Of a DNA stretch of 64,000 nt, positions 3,547-34,154 are shown piece by piece. Both the position numbers and the translations under genes were made by a program. Below the pieces are notes generated by a model. It saw nothing but the letters and a program-made list of their open reading frames with translations, was not told the origin of the DNA and searched no databases. Position 1 is the stretch's first letter. The number at the start of each line of letters is the position of its first letter. Source of the DNA: a phage; sequence record PX104380.1; one strand, 5' to 3'.

Positions 3547-4007
3547 TAGTAAAGGTCCTCAGAGTAAAGTTCTTTTTCACTACCACCACGTTCAATACGT
3601 ACTTGTCCAGCGTAAGTTGCAATAATCATTGCTTCTTCACGTGTCCAATAATTACTATATTGGTCAATAAACCCTTGGTCATCATCACAAACTTGTTGAG
3701 TAACTAATTGAGGTTTAACTACATCTAAAACTTCTGCCATATCTTTAGAATAATGACGAGCACCTGGAATAATAAGAGTTCGTCCATCTTTTAATTTAAA
3801 ACGATTAGCTGCACAGACAATTCGTCGTTGATACTTTTGGTTTTCATCCCAGTACGCAGTCTGCCAACAGATTTCAGGAACTTCTTTCAGAATATCTTCT
3901 TCTGTGCATTTATAACCATGCGCTTTAAATTTTTGAACAAGACTCTCCGGAGTCTCACGAGATAAAGGCACATTCAGCATTTTTAAACGATTAATAAATG
4001 GGTTCAT
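3546..4007 (-). CDS. Hypothetical protein (arn-motA interval)
   Basis: 153-aa ORF, ATGA-type coupling with neighbours. Confidence 0.55.
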
Positions 4008-4333
4008 TTAAACCATCCTTTAATACGCTGCCACAAAGTTTTCTGCTGAGCTTTGTTGACACCAATTGAACGAATAACTGGTTGAGATTCCTGGAATTCT
4101 TTATAATCGGCAAGGTAAATTTCGTAAGCTGCATCCGTAAATGAACTTATCGCTGCCATAAAATTATTGCGAATACCTACTGGAGCATCTTTACTTTCAC
4201 GAATAATCATGTATTTACCAGTCTTAATCTTTACAATAGTTCCAAGATAAGCTCCATGATACCAGATGTCCCAACCCTCTTGAGTAGGTTCTGCACAACG
4301 ACGAAGTTCATTAACAATTTCTAACTTGTTCAT
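4004..4333 (-). CDS. Hypothetical protein (motA.1 position)
   Basis: 109-aa ORF directly downstream of motA. Confidence 0.55.
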
Positions 4334-4343
4334 TATTTATTCC

Positions 4344-4979
4344 TCACAGTTCAGATGCTACAGTGATTACTGCTTCAATGTTTTCTGCCGAGCGTTTAAT
4401 GTCAAGATAAACATTACCGTTTTTAGCGATTTTACAAGACATTCCGATATCAGTAAATTTCTGAATATGATGTTCCATCATTTTGTATCCAAAAATTCGC
4501 ATATTTCCATTGTTGTTAATTTCAAAATTACGAATTCCGTGAGTGCGTTTTTCTAAAATAGCGAGATAGTTACTGCGATAAGTTTCAACCTTTTTAAGAA
4601 CAAATCCATTTTCATCTAAAAGTTTTAACATGAGGTCTTTATCTTCTTCCATATCAGAAGTAATCTCACGAGCTTTACGAGTTGCTCGTTTTTTCAGTAG
4701 TTCCGGAGCATTTTCCTGTGCGTATAAAGTTGCTGCATTTGAAATAATATCCTGGGCTTCACCTGTAATGATTAATCCATCACCAGATTTCTCCACCAGG
4801 CCTTTTTTAATCAATACCCCAATATTACTATTAACTACTGCGTTACCTAAATCTGGATGCACCCCACGAACTTCTGCGGCTGTAATGAAATCTTTCTTAG
4901 CAATGGTAATTAAAATCGCAGCAGTTTTTTCATTCAGAACATCGTTAGAAGCTTTGATGATGTAAGTTACTTTAGACAT
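4344..4979 (-). CDS. motA: Middle-transcription activator MotA
   Basis: 211 aa, MSKVTYIIKASNDVLNEKTAAILITIAKKDFITAAEVRGVHPDLGNAVVNSNIGVLIKKGLVEKSGDGLIITGEA matches remembered T4 MotA. Confidence 0.95.
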   Translation of the reverse strand: MSKVTYIIKASNDVLNEKTAAILITIAKKDFITAAEVRGVHPDLGNAVVNSNIGVLIKKGLVEKSGDGLIITGEAQDIISNAATLYAQENAPELLKKRATRKAREITSDMEEDKDLMLKLLDENGFVLKKVETYRSNYLAILEKRTHGIRNFEINNNGNMRIFGYKMMEHHIQKFTDIGMSCKIAKNGNVYLDIKRSAENIEAVITVASEL

Positions 4980-5014
4980 TTTCTAATCTCCGTAATTCTG
5001 TATCAGTAGTTGAT

Positions 5015-5075
5015 AGTTGTATAGTACCACAGTATGCTTTGGTTGTAAACCGTTTTATGAAAAAAATTTTAAAAT
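5015..5075 (-). promoter_or_regulatory. Early (sigma70) promoter module upstream of motA
   Basis: - strand GTTTAC (plus 5045-5050), 17/18-bp spacer, extended -10 TGGTACTAT (plus 5021-5029), AT-rich UP region; conserved leader with GGAG before motA ATG. Confidence 0.65.
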
Positions 5076-5100
5076 AAAAAGGGAGAGCCTCGGCTCTCCC
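5061..5100 (-). terminator. Intrinsic terminator downstream of gene 52 and the 49-aa ORF
   Basis: - strand 8-bp GC-rich stem (GGGAGAGC/GCTCTCCC, 4-nt loop) followed by T-run TTTTTATTTTAAAATTTTTT. Confidence 0.7.
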
Positions 5101-5105
5101 TAAAA

Positions 5106-5255
5106 TTACTGCATGACTGTGATAACTGTCATGATAACACGTTGAATTCCGAACGCAAGAAGACCTCCTGCTACGGCTGGAACAACACCTAAACCCGCCA
5201 GTAAAATGCTACCGGATACTAATGCAGCGCTTGTAATACCAATGAATGGACTCAT
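5106..5255 (-). CDS. Small hydrophobic membrane protein (49 aa), translationally coupled to gene 52
   Basis: ATG 5255 overlaps gp52 stop (ATGA); own translation MSPFIGITSAALVSGSILLAGLGVVPAVAGGLLAFGIQRVIMTVITVMQ; below the 60-aa track cutoff. Confidence 0.5.
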   Translation of the reverse strand: MSPFIGITSAALVSGSILLAGLGVVPAVAGGLLAFGIQRVIMTVITVMQ

Positions 5256-6580
5256 TTGATTTCCTCTAAATCTTTAGTGTATTCTGTAACTACATCAGTA
5301 GTTTTCCAATATTCGTTTTCTTCTTTTTTAGCTTTAGCTTCTTCAGCAAGTTTCTTTGCTTCGTCGGAAGTCATATGAAAAATATTCATTCCGACTAGTT
5401 TATCGACATAAGAAGAATACATCTCAATTTTAGAAAGTTCTTCGGTCAGTTCTTTGCGAGTTTTACCCTGTACAACAATTTCACCTGAAATTACTTTCTT
5501 AATGAAATGCGCCTTGGCAAAGGCTAAACGAAAAGCTGACTCAGTTTCTTTGATTTTGTTATCAATTCGTTTTTGGACATAAGTTTTACGAACTTCAACG
5601 AAGTCTTTGATTAAATCAACTACGTTATCGTAAACTTGTAGCTTTCCTTTCTCATTAATAACGGTAATATTTTGGGAACGACGCTCAATCAACCCAAAGT
5701 CTTTCATAATTTTTGCATGGCGTTCTTCTTCGTTATCGCTCAAAGAATATTCTTTGCGGAATTTAACTTTGAAGCCAAAACCATGCTCACCACAAGCATC
5801 ATCCCATGTAATGAAGCCTTTATCTTCAAGTGGATCTAAAATTTTGCTCACATAAGTTTCACGATCATACTTATACGGAATCTCAGTGATATGCATTTGC
5901 GTTCGTGAAGTAAACTTATATGTTCCACGAATTTCATATTGACCGTCAATCTCAACGACTTCACCACGAAATTCTGGGAATTCTACCTTCGGTTTAGTTA
6001 CTTTCTTTCCTTGAAGAGCTTGCAGTACAGCTTTCTTGACAGAAGAAACACTATGAGGAAGAATGTAAGTTGCATAACCAGTTGCAATACCGGAAACACC
6101 ATTAAGAAGAACAGTAGGAATAATAGGCAAATAGAAAGCAGGCGGAATGTGTTCTTTATCTTGATGTACCGGAGCATATTCAGTATCTTTATATACGTTA
6201 TAGAAATTTTTACTTACACGAGCAAAAATATAACGACTTGCTGCTGCTTTTTGAACGGTACGAGAACCAAAGTTTCCTTGACCATCTAACAAAGGAAAGT
6301 TATTATTCCAAGTGTTAGCCATCAAAGCCCCCGCATCTTGTGCAGAGTTTTCACCATGATGATATCCAAGGTCCGCTACACCACCTGCAATAGAAGCGAG
6401 TTTGTGAAACTTATCTTTATTTCCTCGTGCCAAATCAAGAGCTCGAGCAATAACAAATCGTTGAACTGGCTTAAATCCGTCAATCATATTTGGAATGGCA
6501 CGATTTTCAACCGTGTACATAGCATAAGCCAATGCTTCATTATCAATGATACTTTTTAAATCGCGATTATTCAGTTGCAT
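5252..6580 (-). CDS. 52: DNA topoisomerase II medium subunit gp52 (GyrA-like)
   Basis: 442 aa, matches T4 gp52 length and order (motA-52); breakage-reunion region IDGFKPVQRFVIARAL. Confidence 0.93.
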   Translation of the reverse strand: MQLNNRDLKSIIDNEALAYAMYTVENRAIPNMIDGFKPVQRFVIARALDLARGNKDKFHKLASIAGGVADLGYHHGENSAQDAGALMANTWNNNFPLLDGQGNFGSRTVQKAAASRYIFARVSKNFYNVYKDTEYAPVHQDKEHIPPAFYLPIIPTVLLNGVSGIATGYATYILPHSVSSVKKAVLQALQGKKVTKPKVEFPEFRGEVVEIDGQYEIRGTYKFTSRTQMHITEIPYKYDRETYVSKILDPLEDKGFITWDDACGEHGFGFKVKFRKEYSLSDNEEERHAKIMKDFGLIERRSQNITVINEKGKLQVYDNVVDLIKDFVEVRKTYVQKRIDNKIKETESAFRLAFAKAHFIKKVISGEIVVQGKTRKELTEELSKIEMYSSYVDKLVGMNIFHMTSDEAKKLAEEAKAKKEENEYWKTTDVVTEYTKDLEEIK

Positions 6581-6584
6581 AAAT

Positions 6585-6725
6585 TTACCATACTAGTGAA
6601 TGTAGTGCCATAATAACATCAGAAATGAAAAGCACGACTTGAATTAATCCGAACATTACTCCATAATATAGTGCTACTAATAAAGTAGCAAGGGCTAATG
6701 AATAGCCCAAGATTTTCTTAATCAT
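6585..6725 (-). CDS. Small hydrophobic peptide (46 aa)
   Basis: own translation MIKKILGYSLALATLLVALYYGVMFGLIQVVLFISDVIMALHSLVW; directly upstream of gene 52. Confidence 0.4.
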   Translation of the reverse strand: MIKKILGYSLALATLLVALYYGVMFGLIQVVLFISDVIMALHSLVW

Positions 6726-6883
6726 TAGTAGATAACAACACAAATGTTAAATATGCACACATACCCTGAGCTAAAGCTTGCGAAAACACACTGCTGGCAT
6801 CAATACAGATAGTTAAAACACATGCTACTATCCAACAAATAAATGAAATAACTCCTAATAATTTTGCAATATTCATATTTTCC

Positions 6884-6997
6884 TCACATAAATCCAAAGT
6901 AAACGTTTAATACATCAATCATTAAAACGATTGGGAATATACTCAAAACTACTAGTATTATAACTACATTCCATATAGCTTTAACAATCTTTTTCAT
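6884..6997 (-). CDS. Small membrane peptide (37 aa) behind conserved early leader
   Basis: ATG 6997 preceded by GGAGGAACAGAAA leader; MKKIVKAIWNVVIILVVLSIFPIVLMIDVLNVYFGFM; track ORF is an upstream extension. Confidence 0.45.
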   Translation of the reverse strand: MKKIVKAIWNVVIILVVLSIFPIVLMIDVLNVYFGFM

Positions 6998-7019
6998 TTT
7001 CTGTTCCTCCGTAGTTGAT

Positions 7020-7080
7020 AGGGTAATAGTACCACGGAAGAACAGTCTTGTAAACAGCTTTTTTAAAAATATTCGTAATA
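7020..7080 (-). promoter_or_regulatory. Early promoter module
   Basis: - strand GTTTAC (7050-7055), 17/18-bp spacer, TGGTACTAT (7026-7034), AT-rich upstream. Confidence 0.6.
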
Positions 7081-7240
7081 AATGTGAATACCAACTACTA
7101 CCGCTGAAACCTGTGCAACCCACCACGCACAAGCAATAAGTACAGAATTCAAAATTTTCATAATAACCTCATTACAAAAGTAAATGTTAAACAAATTACT
7201 GGAATACTAATTAACCAAACAAAACACCACCATAGTGAAC

Positions 7241-7504
7241 TCATAGCTCAATCTCAGCGATTTTCATTTCATTACTATTAATAGCCGCTTTAAGACTATC
7301 TGAAAGAATTACATTCCAATGGTCATTCATATGACCATTAACTAAGCGTGTAATTTCTTCGGGAGTTGAAAAATAAGGCTGATCAGACTCCCAATGCGAT
7401 AGTCCCAAGCGAGTATAAATCATACCTTCATCATCGCTAGAATATTCAACTGACACAAACTCATCAGTTATTTTATGTTTAGCGTAATAAAATTTAAATT
7501 TCAT
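7241..7504 (-). CDS. Hypothetical protein (87 aa)
   Basis: ORF behind conserved leader CGGAGGAACAGAAAATG and an early promoter. Confidence 0.55.
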   Translation of the reverse strand: MKFKFYYAKHKITDEFVSVEYSSDDEGMIYTRLGLSHWESDQPYFSTPEEITRLVNGHMNDHWNVILSDSLKAAINSNEMKIAEIEL

Positions 7505-7526
7505 TTTCTGTTCCTCCGTAGTTGAT

Positions 7527-7587
7527 AGTTATATAGTACCACGGTCCTTGTGGTGTGTAAACCATTTTGTGAAAAATTTTTTAAATG
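7527..7587 (-). promoter_or_regulatory. Early promoter module
   Basis: GTTTAC (7557-7562), spacer, TGGTACTAT (7533-7541), AT-rich UP. Confidence 0.6.
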
Positions 7588-8138
7588 GAAAGATACCATC
7601 CGTTGTAGTTGCTTTTTCGCACTACCTTACGAAGGTCTTCTCTGTCACCGATGAACTTCGGAGTGTACTGGATGACACCTGGATGAATTTCTTTAGTGTT
7701 GAATATAATTATACAGTCCGCGACTTGATGATTTAGAATGGGCCCTAGATTTATTCCAGAACCATATGGATACTCTCCGCTGCATCCCGTTGTTACCGAA
7801 ATCCAACGCGAGTCAGTTTGATGTGTCTTAACTTCTACACGGAGCCCACAGTATTTTGGATGTGCTAAAACATCCCATGCATACGTGTACGGATCATCGG
7901 CATCTTCTTGACCTTTGTTAACATATCCACTCAACCAATCTGCTACCACATACTCGGCATACACAGCAATACGGCATCTTTCGATAACTTCTGCCTTATC
8001 CTGATTTGGGTTTTGTTTTAAAGAGTATCTTGCAGTATCAGCAATTTTGGCCTTCATTTCACTAGTCAAGTCACTGTTAGATAGTGTAAATGACGGAATC
8101 TGAAATAGTCTCTGCAAACCCGGATTCGTTTTCTGCAT
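7581..8138 (-). CDS. denB: Endonuclease IV DenB-like
   Basis: 185 aa, the size of T4 DenB, directly upstream of rIIB as in T4; sequence not verified. Confidence 0.6.
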   Translation of the reverse strand: MQKTNPGLQRLFQIPSFTLSNSDLTSEMKAKIADTARYSLKQNPNQDKAEVIERCRIAVYAEYVVADWLSGYVNKGQEDADDPYTYAWDVLAHPKYCGLRVEVKTHQTDSRWISVTTGCSGEYPYGSGINLGPILNHQVADCIIIFNTKEIHPGVIQYTPKFIGDREDLRKVVRKSNYNGWYLSI

Positions 8139-8167
8139 TTAAACTTTCCTTTATGTCGGAATCATAA

Positions 8168-8198
8168 TTTCTCTTAAAACAAAAGGGCCGAAGCCCTT
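8168..8198 (-). terminator. UUCG hairpin with T-rich tail (terminator-like)
   Basis: - strand AAGGGC-TTCG-GCCCTT then TTTTGTTTTAAG. Confidence 0.45.
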
Positions 8199-8201
8199 AT
8201 T

Positions 8202-8396
8202 TTATTTGAATTGTGCAATTCTTTTTTCTAAACAATCTGCGTAAGATTTCATTGAGATGAACTGTGAAAGCAGTAATTCTTGCTCAACTGCATTAACTGT
8301 TAGAAACTTTGCGCTTTCTAAAAATTTACTCAGTGCATTAATTTTGAGCATTAATTGATCGTATTCTTCTTTTACTCGTGCTTGATAACCTAACAT
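8202..8396 (-). CDS. Hypothetical protein (64 aa) between rIIB and denB
   Basis: ORF with predicted helical/coiled character. Confidence 0.45.
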   Translation of the reverse strand: MLGYQARVKEEYDQLMLKINALSKFLESAKFLTVNAVEQELLLSQFISMKSYADCLEKRIAQFK

Positions 8397-8428
8397 AATT
8401 TTCCTTAATGTGATAAGGGACGAAGCCC

Positions 8429-9367
8429 TTATTTAAATTGTTCTGTAACGTCTTCAACTACTTCGTATTGGCAGGTACGCATTTTAGCATCGTTGTAATC
8501 AATCGGAATTGATACTACATCACGCGGATGTACTTTAACTTTTACAACTCGGCTAGTTGAACTGCCAAAGTGACGAATATAAGATTTAGAACACACATGC
8601 AGACCGCGAGAACAAGTTTGTGTATCATCGTCATTCACACGAGTACGTGGCATTTTAACTACTTTACCAGGGCTGTTATCAAAAGTATTTGAATGACAGT
8701 CAAAGTAATTGCTGCGAACTACTTTCCAAGCATAGAAGTAACCGTCTTCTGTAATTTCAATATCGTTTGCTACCAAGAAATCAAAGAGTCGAGATACCGC
8801 TTTTTGGCTTGGGTTTTCCAGCAGATTTTCCAAGAACGGAAAATAGAATTCAAAGTTTTCGCCTTTTTCCATCGAGTCAAGAATACGATCAACCAAACCA
8901 GACCGTAATTCGATATTTTGATAGAACAAGCTTCCACCTTCAATTCGAACATCGCCGGAAATATATTTTTCAACAGCGCGGCGAACATTAATTTTTTGCG
9001 CAGCTTCTTCCAGCTTATCTGCTACAAGCAGATTAAGAATTTCCTGGAAGTTTGAATGAGTATTAGGAGTTGCGTTATAAGTTACACCGTCAACAGTAAT
9101 TGAAATGAATTTTTTAGATGCATTCCAAATAATGTCAGATTTAGCAACTGGAGCAATAGCTACATCACTCTTAACTTCAACTGTAATGTCACCGCTAATA
9201 GTAACTTTGGAGCGTTTAGCTTCTTCAGCATTTTTCAAAACACGACGGATTGTGTCAACCGATACACCTTGCCAATCAGCCAATTCCTGTTGGGTGTAAT
9301 TACCACTTGAATACAGCTTAACAATTTCAGCTTGTTCGTTTTTGGTCAGGCATTTAATATTGTACAT
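8429..9367 (-). CDS. rIIB: rIIB protein
   Basis: 312 aa, MYNIKCLTKNEQAEIVKLYSSGNYTQQELADWQGVSVDTIRRVLKNAEEAKR N-terminal HTH; downstream of rIIA. Confidence 0.9.
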   Translation of the reverse strand: MYNIKCLTKNEQAEIVKLYSSGNYTQQELADWQGVSVDTIRRVLKNAEEAKRSKVTISGDITVEVKSDVAIAPVAKSDIIWNASKKFISITVDGVTYNATPNTHSNFQEILNLLVADKLEEAAQKINVRRAVEKYISGDVRIEGGSLFYQNIELRSGLVDRILDSMEKGENFEFYFPFLENLLENPSQKAVSRLFDFLVANDIEITEDGYFYAWKVVRSNYFDCHSNTFDNSPGKVVKMPRTRVNDDDTQTCSRGLHVCSKSYIRHFGSSTSRVVKVKVHPRDVVSIPIDYNDAKMRTCQYEVVEDVTEQFK

Positions 9368-9378
9368 AATTTTCCTTA

Positions 9379-11556
9379 TTAGGCCGCAAGGGCCTTCATA
9401 GTTTTAGCGATTTGAGAAACTTCATCATCACTTAAAGAGTTGCGATATCCGATGAAGTCGGAAACAATACGGAATTTCTTGGTAAACTCAGCAACCATTT
9501 TATCACTGTTTTTTGAAGCATTATTTGATAATACATCAAAAAGATTAGTTACTGTCCAGATGTCATGACCGATGGTATCTTTTCCACCATTAAAATACAC
9601 ACCCTGCAATGAACTAACCATATTAGCGAGTCGTGTATATTCTTCAGAAACTTCATCTGTACTGAAGTACTTCATCATAAAATCTAGTTCAGGATGCTTG
9701 ATAATTTTATCAATATATCGTTGAGCTGAACTTGAATAACCTACATACTTATCATAATCTACATCATCAAAAGCATCTACATATAAATCACGTAAAGCTT
9801 CAAAAATACATTGGCACTGACCAAGCTCTTTTACCTTTTTCTGCAAAAGCGGACGAATAACATAAAATTCATTAATGCCAATAAGATTAGCCATACGAAT
9901 CAAAATATTCATAGATGGATGACAAAGCGATGTAGTACCATCCATAGAGAAAATATCAGAACGATGCATATACGCTACATACCCAGTAATTTCATCTGCT
10001 TCTGATGTGAGCGTAAATAATTCCTCTTTTTCCCAGCGCCCGTCTTTAATTTCAAACTTAAATGCTGTAGCAGCTTTAGGACGAGGAGCTTTACTTTTAA
10101 CTACCTTTGGAATATAGCTTTTAACTAAAGCTTCAATTTCTGACAAATAATGAATGTTAACTTCATCACTTTCAAACATCGCCATAATATCAGGAAGCAA
10201 ATCAATCTGCGATTCTACTTCTGGATTAATAAACAGAAGGCGTTCGTTGTGATGAATATTTAAGGTGTTATTAAATTCACTATCATCTAACGCATGTGCT
10301 AATCCACGGACAATATTAACACGATTTTTAATATTATCAATAACGATATTAATTTTTGTTGCATTAATACCAAACAGACGATAACTTGATGCAACGGCTG
10401 AAGTTTCATGACTTTGCTTAATGCGTTTCAGTCGAGGGTCAAGATTTACTTCATACACAACTCCTGCATTGCATAACTTACTATCAGGTTCAAACATACT
10501 CTGCATCTTTTTATATGACAGATTTTTAGTCGTGAATTTGACTGAATTACTAATCATATAATCTCGAGCAGAATACCCCATCTTCATCAATTCACGATAT
10601 GTGTGACGAGGAGATGTAGATTCTTTAAATCGTTTTACATCTTCATTAAATGCTTTCTCACTGAGTTCTTTAACTCGTTCAATAATATTTTTACGAGTAC
10701 GATCATCCAGTGAAAGAGCCTCACGAGATGGAGCAATATCAAGTGAACCCATTGGAAACTTAATGTAATTCACTTCATTGCGAATGCTTAGCCAGTTACG
10801 GTCTCTAATAACACCGTCGATAGGATAAACAATACCGCCATAGATAGCATATAATCCGCCGCGATCTGGCCAGTATCTTTCTGGATTTACACCGTAATAA
10901 TCATCAAAATCCGGAAAATAATCAATTTCGCGGTCAAGACCGTTAATGATAGCCAAATCTTTGAACGGTCGCATGATATAAGAAACTTCATAAGCAAAGT
11001 TTCTAAAGTCTTTTTCTTCAACTGGAACTACGATTTCAATACCAGTTTTATCATCTGGATCCATTTCTTTTACGAATGTAGGTTTAATCTGTGGACCATC
11101 ACCATCCATGTAAGCTACATAACCACGAATTTCACCTTTATGATACGAAGTAATACTAAACGTATCAGTATAACTAAACGGAGATTTAGAACCTAAACCA
11201 AATCCACCAATGAAATCATTAGATTCAGCTTTAGATGAACTGAAATATGAATTATACAGACCAGGAGAATTATCATCACCCTGAATATCAAAATCACTCA
11301 TACCCGGACCAAAATCTCGACAAACAAATCGTGGATCTAAACGTCCAGGAACTTGAATGATAAATTTTTCAGGATTTCCATTGAGAGAATGGGCATCAAT
11401 CATGTTGGTAATCAATTCACGGACTACTGCGCGAATCTTGTTTGTATACAAATCAGACGACAGAATTTTAAATACTTTAGGAGATGCTGTGATGCTAAAT
11501 GCTTTTGATTTAGAACCATTGCCAAGAATTGTTTCTTTTTCAGTGGTGATAATCAT
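9379..11556 (-). CDS. rIIA: rIIA protein (GHKL-type ATPase fold)
   Basis: 725 aa; N-box-like [10 protein letters not shown] and G-box-like GGFGLGSKS motifs; T4 rIIA length. Confidence 0.93.
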
Positions 11557-33749: not shown

Positions 33750-33902
33750 TTAAACCTCAATTGATACATTCATATTTAACTTGTAACAGTAATAAACCCC
33801 AACCTAAAATAATAGTTGGAATCATAAGAGGAACCGTTACACTATAGTATATACTTATTATAATCATCAAGATTAAAAGCAACACTGCTATAATTTTGCT
33901 TT

Positions 33903-34154
33903 TCATTCCTTCTCTCTGATGATAATTACCTGATTTGGTTGTGCAGACTTTTTAGTTTCACCCGCAATTGACCAAATAAATGTAATAAACCAACCAATAA
34001 TTGACCAGTTAAACAGTAAAGATGTGAAAAAGATTCCTACTGTCGATTTTGACCCACGCATCAAGGCGATAAACCATGGAAGCATGTATATAATAATAGC
34101 CAACACACCTGAAACTAAAACCATAAAAATTGAACCTGCTACTAAAGTTTCCAT
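33903..34154 (-). CDS. imm: Immunity protein Imm (superinfection exclusion)
   Basis: 83 aa, METLVAGSIFMVLVSGVLAIIIYMLPWFIALMRG matches remembered T4 Imm. Confidence 0.9.
   Translation of the reverse strand: METLVAGSIFMVLVSGVLAIIIYMLPWFIALMRGSKSTVGIFFTSLLFNWSIIGWFITFIWSIAGETKKSAQPNQVIIIREKE

Follow-up and report, generated by a model that had tools for sequence, protein, structure and literature searches.

The window analysed here is a 64,000-nt stretch of phage DNA (sequence record PX104380.1). All genes in its part from denB to motA are encoded on the minus strand, and the features of this part are listed in Table 1 in their minus-strand order. The original prediction, made from the sequence alone, proposed a tandem array of tiny hydrophobic ORFs at 6585-7240. 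The array was verified as five minus-strand, ATG-started ORFs of 28, 32, 37, 52, and 46 aa within 6585-7244, and the two peptide sequences quoted with the prediction are exact. These five ORFs together occupy 89% of the 660 nt at 6585-7244, and a Shine-Dalgarno sequence (GAGG or GGAGG) is found in four of the five. The ATGA-type overlaps that had been predicted were read directly in the sequence at three junctions: 87-aa ORF/ndd.6, ndd.6/ndd.5, and gene 52/motA.1. The third of these is the junction at which a further ORF of 49 aa (5106-5255) had been described as coupled to the stop of gene 52, and the ATGA overlap is present there. At the ac/52.1 junction the overlap is the 8-nt ATGATTAA.

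Table 1 Features of the denB-motA part of the window in minus-strand order, from the upstream to the downstream end.
Feature	Position	Strand	Remarks
denB	7581-8138	-	Upstream end of the region
Early sigma-70-type promoter	7533..7561	-	TTTACA, 17 nt, TACTAT, extended TG; upstream of the 87-aa ORF, ndd.6, and ndd.5
87-aa soluble ORF	7241..7504	-	phrog_2390; first gene of its unit; stop overlaps ndd.6 start (ATGA)
ndd.6, 28 aa (MSSLWWCF...)	7158..7244	-	One hydrophobic stretch; phrog_8851, E = 1.6e-17
ndd.5, 32 aa counted from ATG (MKILNSV...)	7063..7161	-	GAGG Shine-Dalgarno; one hydrophobic stretch; phrog_5011
Early promoter	7026..7054	-	TTTACA, 17 nt, TACTAT, extended TG; precedes ndd.4, ac, 52.1, and gene 52
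ndd.4, 37 aa (MKKIVKAIW...)	6884..6997	-	GGAGG Shine-Dalgarno; Lys-rich N-terminus, then one hydrophobic stretch; phrog_3098
Single copy of the 16-nt GTGAGGAAAATATGAA	6872..6887	-	Apparent deletion junction between ndd.4 and ac
ac, 52 aa (MNIAKLLG...)	6718..6876	-	phrog_2501, E = 3.7e-25, residues 1-51
52.1, 46 aa (MIKKILGY...)	6585..6725	-	DUF7396; stop 4 nt ahead of gene 52 ATG
Gene 52, DNA topoisomerase II medium subunit, 442 aa	5252..6580	-	Without a Shine-Dalgarno core of at least 4 nt
motA.1, 49 aa	5106..5255	-	Gly/Ala-rich, hydrophobic; GAGG Shine-Dalgarno; phrog_3487, E = 2.2e-31
Strong intrinsic terminator	5080..5101	-	Closes the gene 52/motA.1 unit
motA early promoter	5049-5021	-	TTTACA, 17 nt, TACTAT, extended TG; after the terminator
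motA	4344-4979	-	Downstream of the motA promoter

The six ORFs were compared with T4 by direct translation against the annotated T4T record, and all of them are 95-100% identical to T4 proteins: Ndd.6, Ndd.5, and MotA.1 at 100%, gp52.1 at 98%, Ac at 96%, and Ndd.4 at 95%. Every one of the six also matches its own PHROG family (E 1.6e-17 to 2.2e-31), and 52.1 is a full-length match to Pfam DUF7396 (PF24129), with 81.9 bits against a cut-off of 27 and model positions 1-46 of 46 covered. Hundreds of Tequatrovirus genomes share 97% identity with the region. The gene order agrees with the annotated T4, T2, T6, and ESH35 records, and the same gene names are used in the T2 and T6 records. The array is therefore a rediscovery of six long-annotated, already known T4 early genes, ndd.6, ndd.5, ndd.4, ac, 52.1, and motA.1, because its ORFs match genes named in T4, T2, T6, and hundreds of other records. 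The view of these ORFs as unannotated micro-ORFs had to be given up. They very probably are early genes of a T4-type phage (Tequatrovirus), all six of them named and non-essential, that give small hydrophobic membrane peptides. The practical value of this identification is a correction, as the length cut-off in the ORF track hid named T4 genes; the conservation ranking, the coupling pattern of 52.1 and gene 52, and the ndd-stp deletion described below add modest value.

The genes differ little from their T4 counterparts. The 52.1 product has the same 46 aa and terminal Trp as T4 gp52.1, its stop likewise lies 4 nt before gene 52, and only one residue differs (A14T). Compared with the 51-aa T4 Ac, the window form carries one extra Thr near the C-terminus, which is a common variant, and ac overlaps and directly precedes 52.1 as in T4. 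ndd.4, ndd.5, ndd.6, and motA.1 are arranged in the same order with the same overlaps as in T4. In the 42-aa RefSeq model of T4 ndd.4, translation starts at an upstream ATG, which is ACG in the window. The 87-aa ORF is absent from T4, where only its last 8 codons are kept.

Four or five of the ORFs had been placed between an early promoter at about 7035 and gene 52. This placement is correct for the three ORFs of 37, 52, and 46 aa; the 28-aa and 32-aa ORFs are located upstream of that promoter, where they follow the promoter at 7561-7533 and the 87-aa ORF. The expectation of early transcription was borne out by the early-type promoters in the sequence and by a T4 time course, in which the transcripts of motA.1, 52.1, ac, stp, and ndd.2a-ndd.6 were classed as early (Wolfram-Schauerte et al., PMC9697503, Table S2). 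The expression model proposed here was derived from the sequence and T4 transcriptomics. Right after infection, host RNA polymerase would produce two early polycistronic messages from two sigma-70-type promoters. The first message would carry the 87-aa ORF, ndd.6, and ndd.5, and the second would carry ndd.4, ac, 52.1, gene 52, and motA.1 and end at the terminator at 5101-5080. Within the array, the overlapping or abutting stop and start codons would tie the translation of neighbouring genes.

The promoter-leader cassettes at 7561-7533 and 7054-7026 are nearly identical. Such cassettes are repeated at 7600-7495, 7095-6990, and 5090-4975, where they flank small accessory genes, and the cassette at 5090-4975 comes after a stem-loop terminator. 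Similarly, the PeSL-type promoter-terminator cassettes of the hyperplastic regions of T4-like phages are repeated around small accessory genes (PMC2839356, PMC4122927), and the gene content between denB and gene 52 likewise differs from phage to phage.

A segment containing ndd.3, ndd.2, ndd.1, ndd, and stp, which spans 1,132 bp between ndd.4 and ac in T4, is absent from the window. ac follows stp in T4, whereas in the window it comes straight after ndd.4. The 16-nt GTGAGGAAAATATGAA, which comprises a stop codon, a Shine-Dalgarno sequence, and a start codon, occurs twice in T4, at the ndd.4/ndd.3 and stp/ac junctions, and one copy (6887-6872) is found in the window. Because T4 has two copies and the window has one, the 1,132 bp were apparently lost by deletion between the two 16-nt direct repeats. 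In this respect the event differs from the PeSL arrangement, as the stop/Shine-Dalgarno/start repeat, and not the cassettes, would have been used. ndd was not found elsewhere in the 64-kb window, and it is present in nearly all related loci. The ndd.4-ac junction is shared by one of the 496 matching phage records, that of Shigella phage ESH35, which is marked UNVERIFIED, and by none of the IMG/VR contigs. The natural loss of ndd and stp illustrates, on a small but concrete scale, how accessory genes turn over at a short repeat. The original prediction had missed the absence of ndd and stp, which normally lie between ndd.4 and ac.

Shuffled sequences were used to judge how easily such ORFs arise by chance. 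At least five ORFs of at least 28 aa were obtained in 2 of 2000 dinucleotide shuffles, and the 89% coverage was reached in none of the 2000 (maximum 84%). Shuffling also yields fairly hydrophobic ORFs, with a mean GRAVY of 0.84 (sd 0.48) compared with 1.25-1.86 for the observed ORFs. Since the shuffled ORFs are hydrophobic too, the hydrophobicity is partly a composition effect of the T-rich sense strand, and on such a strand hydrophobicity alone is weak evidence.

Conservation was analysed in 41 IMG/VR loci around gene 52, with gp52 identity from 47% to 100%, together with eight annotated records. Frames and lengths are kept in 11-35 related loci per gene. Homologues of 52.1 were found in 35 loci, with 44-46 aa and a terminal Trp in all of them. 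ndd.4 homologues of 36-39 aa were found in 28 loci, and ndd.6 homologues of 25-29 aa in 22 loci, with two outliers, L004 (83 aa, frameshifted) and L011 (53 aa). ac has homologues in 17 loci, which are Tequatrovirus plus 34%-identical forms in two loci; the 14 loci with ndd.5 are all Tequatrovirus; and the 11 loci with motA.1 include 38-45% identical forms in Kanagawavirus-type loci. The ac gene is broken by a premature stop in the T2 reference and frameshifted in T6, which indicates that it is easily lost. 52.1, ndd.4, and ndd.6 recur across several Tevenvirinae genera. 52.1 is present in Tequatrovirus, Dhakavirus, Kanagawavirus, Karamvirus, and Moonvirus loci and, going by the source name of one match, also in Gaprivervirus. 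The representative loci are Dhakavirus QL01, a Kanagawavirus locus near Kosakonia phage 305, Karamvirus PG7, and Moonvirus CF1. Database homologues of 52.1 carry PF24129 in 14 of 14 cases, and only close phage relatives were returned.

The dN/dS values were calculated as Nei-Gojobori estimates against the window sequence. The values for the six ORFs are about 0-0.4 in nearly all comparisons, and the variation is mostly at third codon positions. The range is 0.03-0.12 for ndd.5, whose variable sites are distributed as 1/0/10 by codon position, 0-0.13 for ac (within Tequatrovirus), 0-0.11 for motA.1, and 0-0.43 for ndd.6, for which one comparison (L008) gave 0.96. Against Dhakavirus-type loci, the range is 0.07-0.11 for 52.1 and 0.10-0.20 for ndd.4. 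This pattern of substitution indicates that the six ORFs are genuine protein-coding genes under purifying selection in the annotated frame. Frame conservation in related phages was one of the points on which the original prediction had staked itself; the frames are kept, and dN/dS is well below 1.

At the protein level, the products of all six genes are marked NA (Class_P) in the T4 data, that is, not detected by mass spectrometry, as are those of stp and the other genes in ndd.2a-ndd.6 (PMC9697503, Table S2), and no T4 ribosome-profiling study was found in the searchable literature. We therefore infer translation from selection. Mass-spectrometric proteomics readily overlooks peptides that are this small and hydrophobic and offer few sites for trypsin. 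The ORFs might instead be chance products of a T-rich, stop-poor stretch that are never translated into functional peptides, as the hydrophobic ORFs in shuffles of the same composition and the undetected peptides in T4 would allow. Such an origin has next to no probability when set against the 89% tiling that no shuffle reached, the frames, lengths, and start/stop overlaps maintained across genera, the low dN/dS with its third-position variation, and the genetic phenotype of ac, which includes single-residue mutants. By the conservation data, a chance origin appears effectively refuted. An RNA element instead of a coding sequence is unsupported as well, with no Rfam family and no stable fold at the 52.1/52 junction; when 4000-9500 was scanned against Rfam (E up to 1), only sub-threshold noise and nothing near a gathering score was returned.

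In each of the six ORFs, the best 17-residue Kyte-Doolittle window averages 2.2-3.4, consistent with a hydrophobic helix able to span a bilayer. The original prediction described the peptides as mostly single-TM, which is plausible: they are hydrophobic enough, and 52.1 was modelled by AlphaFold2 as one uninterrupted 44-residue helix (residues 2-45, pLDDT 96). The description fits less well for Ac, 52.1, and motA.1, each of which has two hydrophobic stretches. Each gene would give a helical hydrophobic peptide of 28-52 aa, whose most likely location, predicted from the hydrophobicity, is the host inner membrane. In databases, T4 ndd.5 and ndd.6 are labelled as "outer membrane" and motA.1 as "periplasmic"; these labels are old predictions. 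A single hydrophobic helix would fit the inner membrane better than either label. PDB sequence searches with 52.1, Ac, and motA.1 returned no relatives with solved structure, and the NCBIfam search of the peptides gave no meaningful match. A holin or antiholin function was considered and rejected, as the genes lie under early promoters between denB and motA and no holin match was found in PHROGs, Pfam, or NCBIfam.

The position of 52.1 relative to gene 52 was then compared across the loci. In all 27 loci having both genes, 4-6 nt separate the 52.1 stop from the first in-frame ATG of gene 52, and this ATG is not preceded by a Shine-Dalgarno core of at least 4 nt. Among the 14 loci without 52.1, the gene 52 Shine-Dalgarno core is present in 10. 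The association between the presence of 52.1 and the absence of this core has a Fisher p of about 9e-7, with shared ancestry ignored. The only G-rich bases near the gene 52 start are those of the invariant terminal TGG of 52.1 and its stop codon. This arrangement suggests that the production of gp52 relies on ribosomes that have just terminated on 52.1. Because gene 52 lacks its own Shine-Dalgarno sequence and its start codon is 4-6 nt past the 52.1 stop, ribosomes finishing 52.1 would probably re-initiate on gene 52, which would give 52.1 a second, structural role. The RNA fold of the 52.1/52 junction is no better than that of shuffles (z = 0.70). Coupling by unfolding is therefore unsupported, and re-initiation by proximity alone remains. 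Masking of the gene 52 start by RNA structure was dropped as a candidate mechanism on the same z of 0.70.

The same data can be read to mean that 52.1, and perhaps also the ORF overlapping the gene 52 stop, acts mainly as a leader or trailer whose translation governs that of gp52, and that the peptide itself is functionless. The spacing and the lack of a Shine-Dalgarno core in 27 of 27 loci agree with such a role, as does the always-present terminal TGG and stop, which supply the only GG near the gene 52 start. The synonymous divergence against Dhakavirus-type loci is also lower for 52.1 (0.39-0.61) than for gene 52 (1.4-2.0). However, a recent exchange of the stp-52.1 segment could account for the low divergence instead, as stp is 96-100% identical in the same Dhakavirus-type loci. 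A functionless peptide is improbable given the 17 invariant residues spread along 52.1 (for example YYG, QVVLFISD, and the final W), the length fixed at 44-46 aa, and the dN/dS near 0.1. A translated peptide with its own function, whose termination may in addition serve gene 52, is the preferred reading of 52.1.

At the other end of gene 52, a hydrophobic ORF of 20-90 aa starts across the gene 52 stop in at least 25 of the 41 loci. The ORFs overlapping this stop belong to at least six unrelated sequence families, so that the position is conserved and the sequence is not. The tight coupling of gene 52 in several genera, upstream to 52.1 and downstream to a small hydrophobic ORF, may be a mildly new point. 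The pattern of flanking ORFs could mean that small hydrophobic ORFs simply arise easily there; peptides working with the topoisomerase are an unlikely explanation of it. In its strongest form, gene 52 would be the centre of a translationally locked trio, in which termination on 52.1 is needed for the gp52 start and the flanking membrane peptides tether or regulate a membrane-associated topoisomerase II. We regard this as quite unlikely. If true, it would explain why unrelated hydrophobic ORFs repeatedly occupy the gene 52 stop overlap in different genera.

A related possibility is that 52.1 and the motA.1-type peptide are putative membrane partners or anchors of T4 topoisomerase II (gp39, gp52, and gp60), made in step with gp52. 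The tight translational linkage on either side of gene 52 is consistent with such partners, and so are the hydrophobic ORFs, from six or more unrelated families, that overlap the end of gene 52 in at least 25 of 41 loci. According to the introduction of a recent preprint, which cites Miller 2003, acridine resistance also maps to genes 39 and 60 (bioRxiv 10.1101/2025.06.30.662393). Resistance at topoisomerase genes may, however, just reflect the topoisomerase as the drug target and not a link to ac. Several genera keep gene 52 without one or both peptides, the saDelta9 phage lacks 52.1 and is still viable, and small hydrophobic ORFs arise easily at this composition. A partnership with the topoisomerase is therefore given only a slight chance.

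Among the six genes, only ac has a known phenotype, which is that the infected cell is sensitive to acriflavine. In classic work, the Ac-dependent accumulation of acridines was put down to altered permeability. AcrZ is a bacterial small membrane-protein regulator that binds AcrB. Loss or deletion of ac gives acriflavine-resistant T4 and T-even phages, and expression of ac in E. coli leads to more killing by acriflavine and ampicillin (bioRxiv 10.1101/2025.06.30.662393). In the same work, the G38R substitution in Ac abolishes the sensitising effect, and the extra-Thr variant, the form carried by the window, acts like the wild type. The authors of this 2025 preprint propose that membrane Ac would block AcrAB-TolC efflux. 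On either account, acridines build up in the infected cell through the action of Ac. Ac and AcrZ are similar in size, in having a single hydrophobic helix, and in the proposed action on AcrAB-TolC, but they have no detectable sequence similarity: a BLASTP comparison gave no alignment at E up to 100. The likeness, at most one of function, is no sign that Ac belongs to the AcrZ family. ac goes unmentioned in a preprint on DNA-intercalating antiphage molecules.

Apart from Kutter 2018 and the ac preprint, no functional studies on ndd.4/5/6, gp52.1, MotA.1, or DUF7396 were found in the searchable literature. ndd.6, ndd.5, ndd.4, 52.1, and motA.1 are deletable and non-essential. In saDelta9, the deleted genes are 52.1, ac, stp, ndd, ndd.1-ndd.6, and denB; the phage yield is then about 50% of the wild type, and the stimulation of phosphatidylglycerol synthesis after infection is lost (Kutter et al. 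2018, PMC6071114). This lipid effect is the only functional hint for the five genes besides ac.

The original prediction noted that small membrane peptides of T-even phages include host-interaction factors. This statement is supported for ac by its known phenotype (bioRxiv 10.1101/2025.06.30.662393). The view of these products as host-interaction membrane peptides is the standing view of the field, and it is demonstrated only for ac. In our working model, small inner-membrane peptides would be made in the first minutes of infection and would adjust host envelope functions. The five other than Ac may be small modulators of host envelope proteins or of lipid metabolism, useful on some hosts and dispensable in the laboratory.

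Alternatively, the peptides could act like Imm or Sp in superinfection exclusion, as toxins, or by triggering or inhibiting host defence, and not as modulators of efflux or lipids. They are early, membrane-directed, and dispensable; they are encoded in a variable region adjoining stp, a known trigger of the PrrC system; and cloning of many of the small early genes of T4 kills the host (PMC6071114). We consider these activities rather unlikely, as PHROGs, Pfam, and NCBIfam returned only self families and no exclusion, holin, or toxin family, and no experiments on ndd.4-6, 52.1, or motA.1 were found in the searchable literature. The comparative data set the experimental priorities: the 52.1 family is the most widespread and the most constrained of the six.

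The segment of the array between ndd.4 and ac was compared with T4. Five genes, ndd.3, ndd.2, ndd.1, the nucleoid disruption gene ndd, and stp, are all absent from the phage, and in T4 they occupy 1,132 bp. A copy of a 16-nt repeat, GTGAGGAAAATATGAA, lies at each end of this segment in T4, and a single copy lies at the junction in the window. The resulting ndd.4/ac junction was shared by only one of 496 phage records, Shigella phage ESH35, and was found in none of the IMG/VR contigs searched.

Features located in the window around the array and by the small ORF scan
Feature	Position	Strand	Remarks
87-aa soluble ORF	7241-7504	minus	between denB and ndd.6; phrog_2390
Early promoter cassette	7600-7495	minus	near-identical to the next two
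Early promoter cassette	7095-6990	minus	
Early promoter cassette	5090-4975	minus	
ndd.4/ac junction	6872-6887	minus	16-nt repeat, one copy
49-aa strongly hydrophobic ORF	33757-33906	minus	MKSKIIAVLLLILMIIISIYYSVTVPLMIPTIILGWGLLLLQVKYECIN

The stp-52.1 segment was further compared in relatives from another genus, the Dhakavirus-type loci (L007, L008, L033, L036, and L043; about 3560-4000 in each). Here identity to the Tequatrovirus versions is 96-100% for stp and 87-93% for 52.1, but only about 81% for the adjoining gp52. Synonymous divergence is 0.39-0.61 for 52.1 versus 1.4-2.0 for gene 52. The high identity of stp and 52.1 and the low synonymous divergence of 52.1 relative to gene 52 suggest that the segment was recently exchanged between the genera or that its bases are under extra constraint. 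The ac position in these loci is filled by an unrelated two-helix ORF of 53-54 aa.

Damaged copies were also identified. In the T2 reference (LC348380) ac is cut short by a stop at codon 11, in T6 (MH550421) its C-terminus is frameshifted, and in one IMG/VR genome (L004) a frameshift has made ndd.6 part of an 83-aa fusion. It follows that genes of this set readily suffer damage or loss. The 87-aa ORF upstream of ndd.6 is present in most other Tequatrovirus loci; T4 retains only its last 8 codons (MKIAEIEL), joined to a short frame.

The three early promoter cassettes resemble PeSL, the repeated promoter-terminator cassettes that have been put forward as drivers of module shuffling among T4-like phages (PMC2839356, PMC4122927). 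The first two listed also share the leader/Shine-Dalgarno CTATCAACTACGGAGGAACAGAAAATGAAA. The upstream ATG of the 42-aa Ndd.4 in the T4 RefSeq model is ACG in the window (6998-7012, minus strand), which favours the 37-aa form, starting downstream of a GGAGG Shine-Dalgarno.

Directly 3' of gene 52, hydrophobic ORFs of 22-77 aa were found (loci L007-L027), which fall into at least six families unrelated to one another. In different Tevenvirinae genera they either begin at the stop codon of gene 52 or overlap it; the position is kept and the sequence is not. Separately, the 49-aa ORF in the table came from a whole-window scan for small hydrophobic ORFs.
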